Below are positions 1 through 40,377 of a stretch of DNA of 42,239 nt, one piece after another. This DNA is from a virus: UHGV virus genome UHGV-0380056; one strand, given 5' to 3'. The position numbers and the translations under genes were made by a program. Positions within the stretch are counted from its first letter, which is position 1; each line of letters opens with the position of its first letter. The notes under the pieces are model-generated. The model worked only from the letters and a program-made list of their open reading frames with translations, made no database searches and had not been told where the DNA came from.

Positions 1-81
1 CTTGAGTGCATAACCTTCCACTACATTACTCTCTAATTTCTCCACTGTATTTAAAGCTCTAATTTCCAAATTAGTTTTCAT
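1..81 (-). CDS. prohead protease (HK97 family), N-terminal 27 codons; the gene continues in frame at the other window end (42239..41769)
   Basis: ATG at 81..79 with ATGA overlap on the portal stop. Translation is MKTNLEIRALNTVEKLESNVVEGYALK, which reaches position 1 in phase. It joins the FNTESRNLGGF... segment from the other end, matching the prohead-protease N-terminal consensus. Confidence 0.6.
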   Translation of the reverse strand, partial: MKTNLEIRALNTVEKLESNVVEGYALK

Positions 82-3886: not shown

Positions 3887-4432
3887 TTACACCTCCTTAT
3901 ATTTGAATATGTAGCCTTTTGTTTGCTTATAATTTCCGAGTAGGACTTGCCGTATGCCAGAAGGGTTTATTTTTAATCTCCTACCGCATTCATTAATACT
4001 ACGATACTCATTATACTCACCGTTTGCAATATCTATTGCAATAATGCTATTACTATTTTGAGTTTTACGTTGTGTAATTGATCGTCTATATAATGACGTA
4101 CCGTGATTAATATTTTCCTTAGATGTGACCCATTCTAAATTATCTAATGAATTATTTGTTTTATCCTCGTCAACGTGGTTTACTTGTGGTTTGTTTTCAG
4201 GATTTGGGATAAATGCTTCTGCTACTAAGCGGTGGATAGGTCGTTTTCTTTTTACACCGTTATTTGATAAGTGTACTCTTAAGTACCCATCCTTAGTTGG
4301 TATGGGTTTAAGTATCCGTTCAACTCTTAAGTTTCCTCTGCTATCATATCGTAGAAGTGCTTTAACTCTCCCAGTATTACTCACCTGATAAAGTCATTCA
4401 TATCCTTTAATATCTTTCCAAATTTCTTCCAT
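3887..4432 (-). CDS. HNH homing endonuclease (NUMOD4 + HNH_3) with an in-frame TGA at 4394..4396; the 165-aa ORF restarts at GTG 4384
   Basis: A strong AGGAGG ribosome-binding site precedes ATG 4432, giving [12 protein letters not shown], then TGA, then [11 protein letters not shown].... Its paralogues here read [27 protein letters not shown]_3 motif: [41 protein letters not shown]. Confidence 0.75.
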
Positions 4433-8737: not shown

Positions 8738-8770
8738 AGTATAGCACAAATAAAAAGTTTGTGCTATACT
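8738..8770 (+). promoter_or_regulatory. 13-bp inverted repeat AGTATAGCACAAA-N7-TTTGTGCTATACT embedding an extended -10 (TGcTATACT) for the HNH gene
   Basis: Perfect complementarity of 8738..8750 with 8758..8770. TATACT at 8765..8770, followed by the conserved leader aggtacataaataagagagg. Confidence 0.45.
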
Positions 8771-8799: not shown

Positions 8800-9309
8800 A
8801 TGGAAGAGATTTGGAAAGATATTAAAGAATATGAAGGACTATATCAAGTAAGTAACTTGGGGAGAGTTAAGAGAGTTACAACAGGTAGAATTTTGAAAGG
8901 TAGTAAAGATAGAGGTGGGTATCTAGTAGTTAATTTATCTAAAAACAATAGTGGTTCTATGAAGAAAATTCATCGCCTAGTAGCTCAAGCGTTCATACCA
9001 AACCCAGAAAACAAAGCAGAGATTAATCATATAGACGAAGATAAGACAAACAACATGCTTTCAAATTTAGACTGGATGACGAGAAAAGAAAATAATAATC
9101 ACGGAACTAGAACAGACAGAATGGCTAAAACGCGAAGTATTCCAATCATTGCAATCAATCTAAAAACGAATGAATCTACAGAGTTCTATGGAGCTAGTGA
9201 ATGCGCTAGAAAACTAGGGTTACATCAACCAAGCATTACACATGTACTAAACGGCAGACGTAAACAAACTGGTGGATACACGTTTAAATATAAGGAGGAG
9301 CGGAAATAA
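8800..9309 (+). CDS. HNH homing endonuclease (NUMOD4 + HNH_3 + C-terminal DNA-binding module)
   Basis: [25 protein letters not shown]; [42 protein letters not shown]; C-terminal [13 protein letters not shown]. Confidence 0.85.
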   Translation: MEEIWKDIKEYEGLYQVSNLGRVKRVTTGRILKGSKDRGGYLVVNLSKNNSGSMKKIHRLVAQAFIPNPENKAEINHIDEDKTNNMLSNLDWMTRKENNNHGTRTDRMAKTRSIPIIAINLKTNESTEFYGASECARKLGLHQPSITHVLNGRRKQTGGYTFKYKEERK

Positions 9310-10907: not shown

Positions 10908-11405
10908 ATGAAAGAAATTTGGAAAGATATTGAAGGATATGAAGGAGTTTATCATGTGAGTAACTTAGGACGAGTGAAGAGAGTTGCAACAAATAGAGTT
11001 TTACAACCATATAGAAACAAAGTTGGCTATTTACTAGTTTATTTATGTAAAAACGGTAAGCGTAAAACTCATAGAATCCACCGTTTAGTAGCACAATCTT
11101 TCATACCAAACCCAGAAAATAAACCAGAAGTTAATCACCTAGACGAAAATAAGATTAATAACATGGTTTCAAATCTAGAATGGTCAACTAGAAAAGAAAA
11201 CTGTAACTATGGAACACGTAATGAAAGACTTAGTATCCCAATTATAGCAACTAAGCTAAAGACTGGTGAATCTAGAGAGTTCTATGGAACTAATGAATGT
11301 GCTAGAAAACTAGCGTTAAATAATGCACACATTACAAGTGTTCTAAAAGGTAGATTGAAACAAACAGGTGGATACACATTCCAATATAAGGAGGAAGAAG
11401 GATGA
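10908..11405 (+). CDS. HNH homing endonuclease (NUMOD4 + HNH_3)
   Basis: MKEIWKDIEGYEGVYHVSNLGRVKRV; [28 protein letters not shown]; C-terminal KQTGGYTFQYKEEEG. Confidence 0.85.
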   Translation: MKEIWKDIEGYEGVYHVSNLGRVKRVATNRVLQPYRNKVGYLLVYLCKNGKRKTHRIHRLVAQSFIPNPENKPEVNHLDENKINNMVSNLEWSTRKENCNYGTRNERLSIPIIATKLKTGESREFYGTNECARKLALNNAHITSVLKGRLKQTGGYTFQYKEEEG

Positions 11406-12737: not shown

Positions 12738-12787
12738 TGTGTCAAGATGATAAAAGTTATGGTATACTATAATAAAGGAGTGATACA

Positions 12788-13477
12788 ATGTATATAGTAT
12801 ATTTACATGTTAACAGAGTAAACAATAAAAAATATTTTGGAATAACGTCACAAAATCCACTGAAGAGATGGAATAATGGAAAAAATTATAGTAGTAAGCA
12901 TTTTAAAAACTCAATATTAAAATATGGGTGGGAAAATTTCAATCACTTTATTATAAAATAAGGATTAACAAAAACGGAGGCGTGTCTACTAGAGATTAAG
13001 TTGATTAATAAATATAATACTACAGACCAGCAATATGGATATAACATATCTGTAGGAGGTGACTGTCCAGCAAGAGGTATGAAACATTCCAAAGAATTTA
13101 AAGAGCAACAGAGTGTACGTAGTAAAAATATAAATTGGACATTAGAAAAGAGGAGTAATATCAGTAAAGGTCTTAGAAATCACTATTTAATGCATGAGTC
13201 ACCATTAAAAGGTAGACCTCAGTCATCTGAACACATTAAGGCTAGAAGCGAGGCACTACGTGGTAGAAAAATATCAGTTGATACACGAGATAAAATATCT
13301 AAAACATTAGGTGGGAGATTATTCAAAGCTACTAATATTGAAACAGGAGAGGTGATATATAGTCACAATCAAACGGCAACAGCTAAAAAGCTTAATGTGC
13401 GTAGAACAGGGCTGAGAAGATGTTTAAACAACGAGCAAAAACAAACAGGGGGCTACACTTTTGAATATGCAAAATAA
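12788..13477 (+). pseudogene. GIY-YIG homing endonuclease interrupted by an in-frame TAA (12959..12961). The N-terminal GIY-YIG fragment is 12788..12961; the remainder is the TTG-start ORF 13001..13477
   Basis: The N-terminal fragment reads MYIVYLHVNRVNNKKYFGIT...KYGWENFNHFIIK, then a stop, then GLTKTEACLLEIKLINKYNTTDQQYGYNISVGG. This is colinear with the intact GIY-YIG at 38358..38915 (YGWDNFNHFIIVDKLTKDEADSLEIKLIQAYDTTTTGYNICHGG). The C-terminal module ends QKQTGGYTFEYAK, like the HNH family. Confidence 0.7.
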
Positions 13478-14815: not shown

Positions 14816-15352
14816 ATGGAGGAACAGTGGAAAGATATACCGTTATTAAGTAGATATCAAATAAGTAGCTTGGGTAGAGTTAAATCAAAACAAAGAACTA
14901 CTAAATGCAACAAAGGGGTTATAAATAGAAAAGAAAGACTTATGACACCTCAATTAAGAGGTAAAAAAGGGTATGAATATGAGTGTATTAGATTGAAAAC
15001 AGATTTAGGATATACCAAATATTACAGTATCCATCGTCTAGTAGCTCAAGCATTCATACCAAATCCTGAAAACAAACCAACAGTAGACCATATCAATCGT
15101 GATAGGCTAGATAATAGGGTTAAAAATTTAAGATGGGCAACATATGAGGAACAGCAGTCTAATAAAATAGTTTCAACAGGACAAGCAAAGATACCTGTAA
15201 AAGCTATTGATAAATCAGGTAATGTATATTATTATGATGGTGTTATAGAAGCATCAAAAGCGTTGGATGTTGACACTGGAACAATATGTAAAGTACTATC
15301 TAATAAGTATATTAATAAAACAGGTGGAGGTTATTATTTTGAAAAAAATTAA
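14816..15352 (+). CDS. HNH homing endonuclease (HNH_3)
   Basis: [38 protein letters not shown]-terminus ...[10 protein letters not shown]. Confidence 0.8.
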   Translation: MEEQWKDIPLLSRYQISSLGRVKSKQRTTKCNKGVINRKERLMTPQLRGKKGYEYECIRLKTDLGYTKYYSIHRLVAQAFIPNPENKPTVDHINRDRLDNRVKNLRWATYEEQQSNKIVSTGQAKIPVKAIDKSGNVYYYDGVIEASKALDVDTGTICKVLSNKYINKTGGGYYFEKN

Positions 15353-16088
15353 ACGATTACGAATTAAGAAAAACGCAAAGTCACCACTGGTGGCAGGAGC
15401 ATTCCAAGGTGAAGATGATCAATTAGTTGATAAATGGATAGCAGAAGGAGGAAATGTAGCCTATGCTACTGGACAAACAAGTGGTATTGCGGTAATAGAC
15501 ATTGATAATCACAATGGAGTAGATGGGCTTAGTAACTTGAAAGAGTTCTTGGATACTTATGATATTGAGTTACCAAAAACTAAAGTTGTTAGGACACCAA
15601 GCGGAGGTTATCATTACCATTTTAAACTTGATGATAAATATAATGACGTACAATTCATTCAAAATCATTCTCAACTAGAAGGAGTTGATTTTCAAACACA
15701 TGGCAGAATAGTATTAGCACCACCTAGTCAAATTGACGGAAAGTATTATGAAGTAGTGCGTGACGTAGAACTCGCAGAACTACCTGAGAAATGGTTAGAA
15801 ATGTTCACAGATAAAACGATTACAAAAAAGAATAAGAAGCGCGAGAAGAAATGGACTGGTCAATTAATGGAAAGTATACTTACTGGTGCAGGCGCTGGGT
15901 CAAGAAATATATTTTTAGCCTCAACAATCGGTAAGCTATTCGCAACAGGAATGGATCATGACGCGGTTAGGGTATGGAGCTTATATGTAAACCAGATTTC
16001 ATTAAATCCACCACTACCAGAAGAGGAGGTGTTAAGAACATATGAATCAGTTAGAAAGCGTGAATTACGAAGAATGGCGGACGATTAA
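15337..16088 (+). CDS. primase-polymerase (PrimPol / archaeo-eukaryotic primase-like domain), probably TTG start
   Basis: [12 protein letters not shown]...[13 protein letters not shown]...[17 protein letters not shown]. The Shine-Dalgarno GGTGGAGG is provided by the HNH 3' end. Confidence 0.65.
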
Positions 16089-16578
16089 AGGATATGAAGG
16101 TAGATATGAGGTTAGTAACTTAGGTAGAGTTAGAAGTTTAAATTACAATAACCAAAAAGGAAATATAAAAGTTAGACCAAGTGTTCCTCATAAACATGGG
16201 TATAGACAAATTAAACTAGGTAATAAAAGCAAATTAATCCACCGTCTAGTAGCAGAAGCATTTATCCCAAACCATGAAAATAAACCTTGTGTTAATCATC
16301 TGGACGAGGATAAGACAAATAATAGAGTTGATAACTTAGAATGGGTAACAAAGAAAGAAAATAACAATTATGGTACTAAGAATATTAGAAGCGCATACAA
16401 GAATAAATACATTTCTGGAAACTTCAAATCCGTAAGTTGCTCAAATGGAGTAGAGTATTTTAGTGTGTCAGAAGCTTGTCGTCAATTAGATTTAGACCCA
16501 AGTACTGTCGTAAAAATTCTAAAAGGTACACGTAAAAGTACTAGAGGCTACACCTTTAAATATAAGGAGGAAGAGTGA
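16042..16578 (+). CDS. HNH homing endonuclease (NUMOD4 + HNH_3)
   Basis: [21 protein letters not shown]; [28 protein letters not shown]; C-terminal [12 protein letters not shown]. Confidence 0.85.
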
Positions 16579-21105: not shown

Positions 21106-21639
21106 ATGAATGAAATTTGGAAAGATATTGAAGGATATGAAGGGTTGTACCAGGTTAGTAATTTGGGGAGAGTTAAATCTTTTGATAGTATAGATAAGTT
21201 AGGTAGAATACGTAAAGGTAGAGTTTTGAAAGGTATTAAAGATGTAAAAGGGTATCTACTAGTTAACTTATATAAAAACAGTATTGTATACACTAAGAGA
21301 CTTCATCGTTTAGTAGCAGAGACATTTATCCCAAATTCAGAAAACAAACCGCAAGTTAATCATATTGACGAGAATAAGGCAAATAACATAGTTTCAAATC
21401 TTGAATGGATGACTGCTAAGGAAAATATTAATCATGGAACACGTAATGAAAGAATGAGTAGAACGCAAAGTATTCCAATCATTGCAACTAATATCAAAAC
21501 AGGTGAATCTCAAGAGTTCTATGGAACAGCTGAATGTGCTAGACAATTAGCTTTGCATCACGGAAATATCACATCAGTTCTAAAAGGTAATCGTAATCAC
21601 ACTGATGGTTACACATTCAAATATAAAGGAGTAGAGTAA
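21106..21639 (+). CDS. HNH homing endonuclease (NUMOD4 + HNH_3)
   Basis: MNEIWKDIEGYEGLYQVSNLGRVKS; [28 protein letters not shown]; C-terminal TDGYTFKYKGVE. Confidence 0.85.
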   Translation: MNEIWKDIEGYEGLYQVSNLGRVKSFDSIDKLGRIRKGRVLKGIKDVKGYLLVNLYKNSIVYTKRLHRLVAETFIPNSENKPQVNHIDENKANNIVSNLEWMTAKENINHGTRNERMSRTQSIPIIATNIKTGESQEFYGTAECARQLALHHGNITSVLKGNRNHTDGYTFKYKGVE

Positions 21640-37726: not shown

Positions 37727-38296
37727 TCAACCGCTAACAACGTTATTTACTTTGTCAACGAATTTATCCAACGTAACTGTATCTGATTCTACAGCATGCA
37801 TGAATGCAATACCACGTGAGTCTGTTACAAATGAACCTTCAATAGATTCAGTGCCTGGCTCTGTTCCGCCTGATTCAGTTGTTGCAAGGTTCATTTCTGG
37901 ATGACTGAAACGTCCTTTTGTTAGACCTAGAAATACATCTTTACCTTCTGGATTACTTGAAACAAACACCACTGACACATATGGTGCTTCTGTGTCTTCT
38001 CCAACTGAGGCAATCCCATCAGGATCACGAGTAATACCTAAAACCTTTTCATAAACACCATTTTTGTAAAGGTCAAACACGTTAAGTGTTGCTTGAACTT
38101 CACCAACACCTTTAGCTGACACCCAAATTGGTACATTAGATGCATACACTGTTGTTTGTTCTGGTGAAATACCTGTAATACTTGACTCAATAGTACCTCC
38201 ACCTGTTTTATCAATTGTTAACTTTTCAATTACGCCCTCAGCGTTTTTTACACTGATGATTGCTTTTTCGAATCCGATTAAAGCGATAATAATCAC
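37727..38296 (-). CDS. major tail protein
   Basis: 189 aa, upstream of G/GT, followed by a terminator. Confidence 0.7.
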   Translation of the reverse strand: MIIIALIGFEKAIISVKNAEGVIEKLTIDKTGGGTIESSITGISPEQTTVYASNVPIWVSAKGVGEVQATLNVFDLYKNGVYEKVLGITRDPDGIASVGEDTEAPYVSVVFVSSNPEGKDVFLGLTKGRFSHPEMNLATTESGGTEPGTESIEGSFVTDSRGIAFMHAVESDTVTLDKFVDKVNNVVSG

Positions 38297-38357
38297 GTCC
38301 TTTGATTTATTTTTATTACTAAAGTAATTATATCATAAATAAGCCACGGTGTGTTGA

Positions 38358-38915
38358 CTAACAAATATAGTTAAAGGTACATTTGTTATGTGTCTTTCGC
38401 TGACCGTTTAGACATTTGTTAATATGTCCTTTATCAAAACCAAGCTCGTTTGAAATGTCTGATACTAGCTGATAATTACGTGTATTACCATCATAAAATG
38501 TGACGCCAATATGTTTGTATTTAAACCCTAACATTGTCTCTGCTTTTATTTTCTGAATTTCTTTTGAGAAAACTTGGCTTTTTCTGCATTCACGTATTTT
38601 TTGCTTTGCTTCTACACTATGTCTTCTACCCCGCATAACACCTGCTCCTCCGTGACAAATATTATATCCTGTTGTTGTAGTATCGTACGCTTGGATTAGT
38701 TTTATTTCTAATGAGTCAGCCTCGTCTTTGGTTAGTTTATCTACTATAATAAAATGATTAAAGTTATCCCATCCGTATTTCTTGATTGCTCTATAAAAAT
38801 GTTTTGAGTTTGAATATGTTGAGCCATTACCCCATCTATCAGAAACTTTTTGACATGTTTGTCCAACATATTTTTTACCATTAATTTTATTTACATGTAA
38901 ATATACTGTATACAT
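38358..38915 (-). CDS. GIY-YIG homing endonuclease (I-TevI-like, with NUMOD3-like linker) inserted in the tail module
   Basis: MYTVYLHVNKINGKKYVGQT...; ...GRRHSVEAKQKIRE. AAGGAGGG ribosome-binding site 6 nt before ATG 38915. The N-terminal extension in the ORF track is the RBS region. Confidence 0.75.
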   Translation of the reverse strand: MYTVYLHVNKINGKKYVGQTCQKVSDRWGNGSTYSNSKHFYRAIKKYGWDNFNHFIIVDKLTKDEADSLEIKLIQAYDTTTTGYNICHGGAGVMRGRRHSVEAKQKIRECRKSQVFSKEIQKIKAETMLGFKYKHIGVTFYDGNTRNYQLVSDISNELGFDKGHINKCLNGQRKTHNKCTFNYIC

Positions 38916-38963
38916 TGAATCCCTCCTTAGTATACAGTATATCATAGTTTTGGCTCTAGTTGG

Positions 38964-39329
38964 TTAAATAATTCTTTGTGATATAGTATAACGTTTGATT
39001 ATTCTACGTCCACGCTTCAAGTCTAAATCTTGTGTTTCTTCTGTGTAGTCACATTGAACATTATCAGCTCTCATTACTTCATCTAGTTTGAAATAATATT
39101 TACTAGCCTCTTCCACATCTCTAACCCATACATCTACTTGAATAGAAGTATTTAGATAGTTAGGATTCTGTGAAGCGTATGAACCATACTCACCATTTAT
39201 TTGAACAATACGTCCTAAAGGGTATTGTGGATTGGTTTGTTGTTCTTCTTCCACTTGGTTAACAAACCAGTTGATTTCAGGTAGTGCTTGTTCTAATGTT
39301 TCTGCAACTAATAAAATAGGTAGTTTCAT
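38964..39329 (-). CDS. tail terminator-like protein (121 aa)
   Basis: Assigned by position between the gp10-like gene and the major tail gene. Confidence 0.4.
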   Translation of the reverse strand: MKLPILLVAETLEQALPEINWFVNQVEEEQQTNPQYPLGRIVQINGEYGSYASQNPNYLNTSIQVDVWVRDVEEASKYYFKLDEVMRADNVQCDYTEETQDLDLKRGRRIIKRYTISQRII

Positions 39330-39751
39330 CTGCTTAATCTCCTTCTCATCTCATTTTGAATTATTGAGGTTACCTTATTCTCAATGTCTTTCATTGTTTG
39401 TTGCATAAATGGTTGTGGATCGTGTTTAATTGTACCATATTCTACAAAATGCACTCGCCATGCAACTTCCTTGTCAAATCCAACTTCTGACATTGGATTA
39501 CCTTTGTTTGGTTTACTGTAGACAATGTGTTCCTTAGCATGGTCACTGTTTATGTCTGAAACAGGTGTCTTAGACTTCAAATGTTTAGCAGCATAGTCTG
39601 TAGCTAATTCTGTGGATTTCAATTGTGCTTCAACGATTCGTTTATCTACATTATTCAAATATTTATATGCTGATTTAAAATCTACGTAGTTTTTTTTACT
39701 CATATGATTCCTCCACTTCTTGGCAAACCAGTGTGGTGAAATCTCTATCAA
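39326..39751 (-). CDS. HK97 gp10-family tail-completion protein
   Basis: ...EVAWRVHFVEYGTIKHDPQPFMQ. Confidence 0.55.
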   Translation of the reverse strand: MIEISPHWFAKKWRNHMSKKNYVDFKSAYKYLNNVDKRIVEAQLKSTELATDYAAKHLKSKTPVSDINSDHAKEHIVYSKPNKGNPMSEVGFDKEVAWRVHFVEYGTIKHDPQPFMQQTMKDIENKVTSIIQNEMRRRLSR

Positions 39752-40334: not shown

Positions 40335-40366
40335 AAAAAAAGAGATAAGGCAAGTGCCTTACCTCT
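40335..40366 (-). terminator. rho-independent terminator after the major capsid gene
   Basis: Minus strand agaggtaaggc-actt-gccttatctct followed by ttttttt. Confidence 0.65.
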
Positions 40367-40377
40367 TAAGGTTTAAT

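Follow-up and report, generated by a model that had tools for sequence, protein, structure and literature searches.

The 42,239-nucleotide viral genome UHGV-0380056, analysed at its full length and called the window below, carries a free-standing GIY-YIG homing endonuclease gene between two tail genes, with a perfect 13-bp inverted repeat laid across the start of that gene. Homing endonuclease genes need enough expression to spread without harming neighbouring phage genes, and the locus raises the question of how such a gene may be expressed when it is embedded in a transcription unit of its host phage. The window comes from an Enterococcus siphophage and is closest in the databases to vB_EhiS_268, Bp29 and DELF1 (about 84% nucleotide identity). 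With moderate confidence, we propose that the repeat forms an RNA hairpin that would serve as a translational gate, set by the origin of the transcript and carried by the mobile endonuclease cassette. The elements concerned are the following.

38358-38915, minus strand: GIY-YIG homing endonuclease gene, 185 amino acids, intact (stop codon TAG at 38360-38358)
38944-38936, minus strand: extended -10 element TGATATACT, promoter-like, with the hexamer TATACT at 38941-38936
38942-38930, minus strand: 5' arm of the hairpin, AUAUACUGUAUAC in RNA, spanning the -10 box and the next 6 nt
38929-38914, minus strand: hairpin loop, 16 nt (UAAGGAGGGAUUCAAU), containing the Shine-Dalgarno sequence (SD) and the A and U of AUG
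38928-38921, minus strand: SD AAGGAGGG, in the loop
38913-38901, minus strand: 3' arm of the hairpin, GUAUACAGUAUAU, comprising the G of AUG and codons 2-5 (Tyr-Thr-Val-Tyr) in the GIY motif region

The two arms, ATATACTGTATAC (38901-38913) and GTATACAGTATAT (38930-38942), are complementary at all 13 positions and separated by a 16-nt gap, exactly as in the original prediction, which had been made from the letters alone; the composition of the 3' arm, the extended -10 element in the 5' arm and the position between tail genes were also found as described there. The true start of the endonuclease gene is ATG 38915 (codon 38915-38913), with AAGGAGGG before it, and the ATG at 38945 chosen by the open reading frame (ORF) tool is wrong, lying 30 nt too far upstream. 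The 13-bp stem would occlude the G of AUG and positions +4 to +15. The repeat had been labelled as sequestering the ribosome-binding site, and this label has to be corrected: the SD is unpaired in the main stem, and in the RNA fold it is touched by a weak 3-bp inner helix (GGA/UUC) alone. The SD pairing typical of hairpin control in phage T4 is therefore absent, the SD being held in the 16-nt loop, and the same layout is seen in the relatives L004, KEN02, L084, L134 and L163. The protein combines a catalytic GIY-YIG domain (Pfam PF01541, 6e-8) with a DNA-binding module of the I-HmuI-type NUMOD-like family (PF22083, 2e-7), as in free-standing GIY-YIG enzymes, and matches the homing endonuclease family PHROG 314 (1.6e-28).

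Perfect inverted repeats of at least 13 bp have nine axes in the AT-rich 42-kb window, against 4.25 +/- 2.1 in dinucleotide shuffles. The presence of such a repeat somewhere in the window is mildly unusual at most; its placement at a gene start is unusual. RNA folding, which the original prediction had proposed as a check, gave a local structure of -17.6 kcal/mol (z = -3.3). Using the best pairing of positions -45 to -4 with positions -3 to +27 as a measure of the duplex between upstream and start regions, we obtained -17.9 kcal/mol for the endonuclease start, an energy that 3 of 3000 upstream shuffles attained and that ranks first among 44 genes of the window. We also predicted the energy required to open positions -13 to +16, giving read-through RNA 150 nt of upstream context. 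On read-through RNA the predicted cost is 17.3 kcal/mol, the highest of 36 genes of the window (3-8 kcal/mol for most of them), whereas RNAs starting at 38931-38928 need an ordinary 5.6-6.1 kcal/mol. By prediction, then, long transcripts bear a stable structure over the initiation region that is missing from short ones, with a difference of about 11 kcal/mol, and the earlier proposal that read-through RNA would hide the start fits these energies.

The extended -10 element is placed so that its TG (38944-38943) lies just outside the 5' arm and its TATACT within the arm. The motif TGNTATAMT occurs at 25 sites in the window (7.5 expected), mostly directly upstream of genes and in sense orientation, and because of this enrichment and placement the extended -10 boxes are very likely working promoters of this phage. 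The motif TGATATACT is conserved across homologous cassettes; of the 18 that were examined, 14 have their -10 box 17-21 nt before the ATG. Since transcription usually begins 7 nt past a -10 hexamer, the start is predicted at about 38929-38927. RNA from the gene's own promoter should then have a leader of about 13 nt that starts at the SD, with 11 or more of the 5' arm's 13 nt missing.

These features suggest how a gate could operate. RNA reading through from the upstream head-tail genes would hold both arms and form the 13-bp stem, which would bury the G of AUG and positions +4 to +15 and hold the SD in the 16-nt loop. The 30S subunit would be unable to seat the start region, and translation of the endonuclease on such RNA would be strongly reduced. 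From the sigma-A-type extended -10 box inside the 5' arm, RNA would begin about 13 nt before AUG, without the arm and with an open start. The output of endonuclease would be set by its own promoter, largely independent of transcription of the surrounding structural genes. Repression would act by blocking accommodation of the start region, not recognition of the SD, and may be leakier.

The hairpin belongs to inserted DNA. The neighbouring features are these.

38964-39329, minus strand: tail terminator gene (PHROG 78), upstream of the endonuclease gene
37727-38296, minus strand: major tail gene (PHROG 88 and Pfam), downstream of the endonuclease gene
about 38356-38963 (roughly 600 bp), minus strand: inserted cassette, a 48-nt leader plus the ORF, from alignment with vB_EhiS_268

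The same alignment places the edges of the insertion directly past the TAA of the tail terminator gene and at the stop codon of the endonuclease gene; the promoter, both arms and the SD are all inside DNA that the endonuclease-less vB_EhiS_268 is without. The site is polymorphic between conserved genes, the endonuclease being absent in 268, Bp29 and DELF1 and present in KEN02 and TwoStep, with decayed copies in L003 and TwoStep. The stop codon of the tail terminator gene is 21 nt from the 5' arm, and this gene is the likely source of read-through transcripts.

A second GIY-YIG gene of the window was expected to carry the same hairpin as part of the mobile cassette.

12788-13477, plus strand: other GIY-YIG gene, with a TAA nonsense codon at 12959-12961
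12760-12802, plus strand: paralogous module, consisting of TGGTATACT followed by the arm GTATACTATA (12762-12771), which pairs with TATAGTATAT (12793-12802)

In the 12788 gene the nonsense change is GAA to TAA at codon 58, the copies in DELF1 and BUCT630 are intact, and the window copy is, judged from its sequence, a nonsense pseudogene. The upstream modules of the two GIY-YIG genes are homologous and include one compensatory pair (G-C in the tail-module clade, A-U in the other). The stem at 12788 has about 10 bp including one G.U, a fold of about -8.6 kcal/mol, a duplex z of -0.65 and an ordinary opening energy of 6.0 kcal/mol. The idea that the hairpin travels with the cassette thus stands for the tail copy, all of whose elements lie in the insertion, and for the homology of the modules; the idea that both genes bear the same hairpin does not.

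To follow the hairpin in other phages, about 195 loci encoding relatives of the endonuclease were collected. The insertion site and the module of the window are shared by KEN02, TwoStep, L004, L188 and L195. KEN02, TwoStep, L004 and L195 have a 15-bp stem (ATATACTGTATACAT/ATGTATACAGTATAT) with an 11-nt loop containing GAGGTG or GGGGTG, and L188 has T in place of the final C of the 5' arm, giving a terminal G.U pair. The proteins of L004 and KEN02 are 56-59% identical to that of the window in the best-matching segment; despite this divergence their arms show no change, even at the synonymous positions of codons 2-5. The best conserved part of the locus is nucleotides 0 to 29 (87-100% identity, compared with 38-67% in the middle of the gene, the closest relative L188 excepted). 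A second clade, comprising the 12788 copy of the window, DELF1 and BUCT630, has a homologous, weaker stem, and in BUCT630 extra G-C pairs arise through synonymous TAC and CTA codons opposite TGG.

In an alignment of nine sequences, 91% of the cells were paired, compared with 13-69% when the partners were slid. Pair 14/41 is G-C in five sequences and A-U in three, and pair 7/48 is A-U, G-C or G.U. The compensation in this alignment lends modest support to RNA pairing. Stronger support comes from lineages with unrelated arm sequences, because their layout is unchanged: the 5' arm overlies the -10 box, the loop contains the SD, and the Y-x-[VIL]-Y codons fall in the 3' arm. Their stems are as follows.

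L084/L197: ATATATGATATAATT/GATTATATCGTATAT, 15 bp with two G.U pairs
L199: AATGATATAATTC/GGATTATATCATT; compared with L084, a U-A to A-U swap and a G.U to A-U change
L134/L198: TATAATATATAA/TTATATATTATA
L163: CAATATACAA/TTGTATATTG; layout also in L072

In these lineages the predicted opening energies on read-through RNA exceed those on RNA from the gene's own start by 7-14 kcal/mol. Where the upstream region pairs strongly, pairing with its own start region beats that with 97-100% of the start regions of other homologues.

The hairpin goes together with the promoter. Among homologue starts with an extended -10 box within 45 nt (n = 21), 43% had a duplex z below -2 (mean -1.71), compared with 4% (mean +0.10) of those without such a box (n = 103; Mann-Whitney p = 3.5e-4), these counts being inflated by relatedness; by clade, in our own grouping, about 5 of 15 promoter-bearing clades were strong. 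A covariance model built from nine Enterococcus-phage sequences and run against 136 sources recovered the training set and close copies, with weak matches in L163, L186, L097 and L108; otherwise it gave reverse-strand matches on the same palindromes, and no usable depth of alignment was gained. The covariance models of Rfam 15 had no match with E <= 1 on either strand of 38300-39400, and in the literature searched we found no description of a hairpin of this kind in Enterococcus phages.

Such control has precedents in T-even and related phages. For I-TevI, I-TevII, I-TevIII and segB of T4 and mobE of Aeh1, a hairpin blocks translation on transcripts from upstream promoters, and in T4 the RNA made from a promoter immediately upstream of the gene is too short to fold (PMC2988022). 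As cited in the same source, early read-through RNA of the T4 genes e (lysozyme) and soc is untranslatable and RNA from their late promoters is translatable (PMC2988022). I-TevI and the gene of the window are both GIY-YIG homing endonuclease genes embedded in a transcription unit of the host, and both have a stable hairpin on transcripts from upstream promoters only, RNA from the nearby promoter being too short (here by prediction). They differ in several respects. The hairpins of the three I-Tev genes pair the SD itself, whereas here the stem covers the G of AUG and codons 2-5, so that the 3' arm is the coding sequence of the catalytic motif itself, a difference from the T4 class as a whole. 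The T4 promoter is the gp55-dependent late promoter TATAAATA; here it is an extended -10 box of the host sigma-A type. I-TevI lies inside an intron, and the gene here stands free between tail genes of a Gram-positive siphophage.

Aeh1 mobE and T4 segB come closer in this last respect, being free-standing endonuclease genes of polycistronic units with hairpin control of translation (PMC2988022). Their control has experimental support, whereas that of the present gene is predicted from sequence; mobE, in addition, encodes an HNH enzyme, is without a promoter of its own and has a hairpin that sequesters the ribosome-binding site, unlike the GIY-YIG gene here. The genes e and soc resemble the gate proposed here in that transcripts are told apart by origin through a hairpin that includes the promoter region, and differ in being ordinary phage genes, not mobile elements, with a paired SD and another class of promoter. 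By analogy, the hairpin most likely works like the T4 class in which the promoter is part of the hairpin, with the SD left out of the pairing.

The surroundings bear on how much read-through RNA a gate would have to silence. The original prediction had placed the gene in a highly transcribed late tail operon.

41745-41737, minus strand: capsid promoter, the nearest upstream extended -10 box on the minus strand
40367-40340, minus strand: terminator-like hairpin after the capsid gene, from the terminator scan
38335-38327, minus strand: native extended -10 box of the major tail gene, TGATATAAT, immediately downstream of the cassette and also present in the endonuclease-less 268

Transcripts from the capsid promoter must cross the terminator-like site at 40340-40367 before they reach the endonuclease gene; the scan gave no terminator-like site between the tail terminator gene (38964) and the hairpin, and a further terminator-like site lies downstream of the major tail gene. 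Because of the site after the capsid gene and the major tail gene's own promoter downstream, the endonuclease gene is placed last in a head-tail transcription unit that is attenuated, and not amid an operon of demonstrably high output.

A number of points weigh against a gate. Given the terminator-like site at 40340-40367, read-through RNA to be silenced may be scarce, or its level modest, contrary to the picture of a highly transcribed operon. The strong SD, exposed in the loop, could serve as a standby site and soften repression. The paralogue at 12788 has the weak hairpin described above, and the duplex z averages -0.17 across 124 distinct homologue starts, so that the hairpin as a feature of the whole family was rejected. 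Double changes are present in just two pairs of the nine-sequence alignment; the arms are invariant within the tail-module clade, and covariation rests on few events between clades. Every functional step of the gate is predicted: sequence and computation provide the anatomy, the predicted energetics, the membership in the cassette and the recurrence with compensating changes in relatives, and from these we infer where transcription starts, whether and how much read-through occurs, how translation is affected and the timing.

Some of these points would equally be expected if the hairpin were a functionless by-product of two constrained neighbours, in that an extended -10 box (TGnTATAcT or TATAAT) and AT-rich Tyr-x-Val/Ile-Tyr codons happened to be reverse complements. 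We regard this as unlikely. The Val-Tyr codons GTATAT and the ATATAC of the -10 region are reverse complements, both being independently constrained; TGATATAAT is almost the reverse complement of ATTATATCA (x-Tyr-Ile); and some of the complementarity of the arms comes free from the -10 box and the Val-Tyr codons. Other TATACT-type promoter regions of the window pair with this start region at -9 to -13 kcal/mol, compared with -17.9 kcal/mol for the real partner (the best of all other extended -10 regions gave -13.2 kcal/mol), 69% of the alignment cells stay paired when the partner is slid by -2 columns, owing to TA periodicity, most homologues have no significant hairpin, and perfect repeats of at least 13 bp are just about twice as many as expected in this AT-rich window. 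Such a by-product, however, would not account for complementarity that, in several independent clades whose sequences differ, extends 5-8 nt past the -10 hexamer and stays in exact register. These extensions, together with the preference for own over swapped partners, the compensatory changes and the synonymous sites of codons 2-5 that stayed frozen while the proteins diverged to 56% identity, make the case for selection; the rarity of the observed energy among shuffles also speaks against mere coincidence.

Two further explanations give the repeat another role. That it is a DNA-level operator overlapping the promoter, bound by a regulator or by the endonuclease itself, is very unlikely in our estimation. 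The palindrome does overlap the -10 box, and the late promoter of T4 I-TevI is repressed by the enzyme itself through an operator similar to its homing site (PMC2988022); the endonuclease promoter TATGATATACT likewise resembles the major-tail promoter TATGATATAAT beside the insertion site. I-TevI autorepression shares with the present case a sequence element overlapping the endonuclease's own promoter, but its operator is a homing-site likeness and not an inverted repeat spanning a start codon, and here the likeness to the target region, judged by eye, ends at the promoter consensus, so an operator of the I-TevI style was rejected. GIY-YIG homing enzymes act as monomers, and arm centres 29 bp apart would be an unusual spacing in a dimeric operator. 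Elsewhere in the window the paralogue matches the arm with one mismatch and the other matches have two, and a repeated operator was rejected on this ground. In other clades the arms change yet stay complementary to each other, as RNA pairing but not a protein-binding site would require. The half-sites TACTGTATA/TATACAGTA resemble an E. coli LexA box; a LexA box was rejected because CTG and CAG are separated by 26 nt here, not by 10, and because the phage infects a Firmicute. It is likewise very unlikely that the hairpin acts on RNA in another way, as a 3' stabilizer or processing site of the upstream head-tail message or as a weak attenuator into the cassette. Its position 21 nt past the tail-terminator stop, at the junction of two transcription units, would suit such a role, but in every clade the 3' arm is inside the endonuclease coding sequence, which ties the structure to the start of this gene and not to the end of the upstream one, and in the phage without the endonuclease the upstream operon works without a hairpin. 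A 13-bp stem is also short for RNase III. The stem is AU-rich (3 of 13 pairs are G-C), the loop has 16 nt, the following sequence UUUACAUG has no U-run and the scan made no terminator-like call; an intrinsic (rho-independent) terminator was rejected. The translational gate set by transcript origin remains the reading that we favour.

Several other observations were made at this locus and in the window. A 16-bp perfect palindrome, TATTTACATGTAAATA (38888-38903), covers codons 5-10 of the endonuclease gene and abuts the 3' arm; it is probably a chance product of AT-rich codons, because it is kept neither in L004 nor in the paralogue. The start of the major tail gene (38285-38310, minus strand) looks non-canonical. 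In phage 268 and L190 it is an ATG 8 nt past AAGGAG, and at the codon aligned to this ATG the window, L188 and L192 read ATC, and KEN02, L195 and L194 read ATA; the sole canonical in-frame start in the window, GTG 38296, lies within the SD-like sequence AAAGGAcGTGAT. At the other end of the cassette, the endonuclease stop codon TAA of L188 and L192 is inside the extended -10 box of the major tail gene (TGCTATAAT / TGATATAAT), and in L194 the major-tail box TGTTATAAT is within 10 nt after the endonuclease stop. In these three relatives a putative host promoter is embedded in, or abuts, the end of the selfish gene. Promoters are likewise embedded at the ends of T4 seg and mob genes, where they are thought to favour retention (PMC2988022).

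GIY-YIG cassettes decay repeatedly: in addition to the nonsense copy in the window, L196 carries a 12788-type gene with a frameshift, the tail-module copy of TwoStep is split into two ORFs and L003/L082 is a remnant from which the promoter, the hairpin and the first approximately 23 codons are deleted. The window also contains, within its 42 kb, six HNH-type homing endonuclease genes (NUMOD4 / HNH_3 / NUMOD-like).

3887-4384, minus strand: HNH gene
8800-9309, plus strand: HNH gene
10908-11405, plus strand: HNH gene
14816-15352, plus strand: HNH gene
16042-16578, plus strand: HNH gene
21106-21639, plus strand: HNH gene

The five of these six that were tested have no start-site hairpin, their starts opening at 2.5-10.2 kcal/mol, and a hairpin common to all endonuclease genes of this phage was rejected. 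A second perfect 13-bp inverted repeat (8738-8770, AGTATAGCACAAA / TTTGTGCTATACT), just upstream of the HNH gene at 8800, consists of two divergent TGCTATACT extended -10 boxes and may be a back-to-back pair of promoters. On the plus strand (replication and early-looking genes) the -10 hexamers of the TGNTATAMT sites are mostly TATACT, on the minus strand (structural genes) mostly TATAAT, the tail-module endonuclease having TATACT though it is among structural genes. A promoter-leader module, TGnTATACT-tAGTtCATAAgaTAAAGAGG, recurs on the plus strand upstream of 8800, 14816, 18569, 21106 and 21894, including HNH endonuclease genes.

It is conceivable, and we put it forward tentatively, that the pairing between -10 box and GIY codons is a portable, self-insulating expression module, kept partly by convergence in many free-standing GIY-YIG genes of Gram-positive and gut phages. 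With its SD displayed in the loop and its promoter inside the 5' arm, such a cassette could insert into whatever operon, including one under heavy transcription, and would still rely on its own promoter alone for expression; promoter and initial codons of the catalytic motif would in that case co-evolve as one unit. The sequence signature, a -10 box 17-21 nt before ATG that pairs with Y-x-V-Y codons, could help to place true starts and should help to predict autonomous endonuclease cassettes; the practical consequence is limited for the present. A layout like that of T4 is now seen in siphophages of Enterococcus as well as several phage lineages from metagenomes, where GIY codons and an extended -10 box of host type make it up. 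This suggests that the combination of hairpin and promoter is a general solution, not a peculiarity of T-even phages, and a regulatory design that is already known is here credibly extended to a new group of phages.

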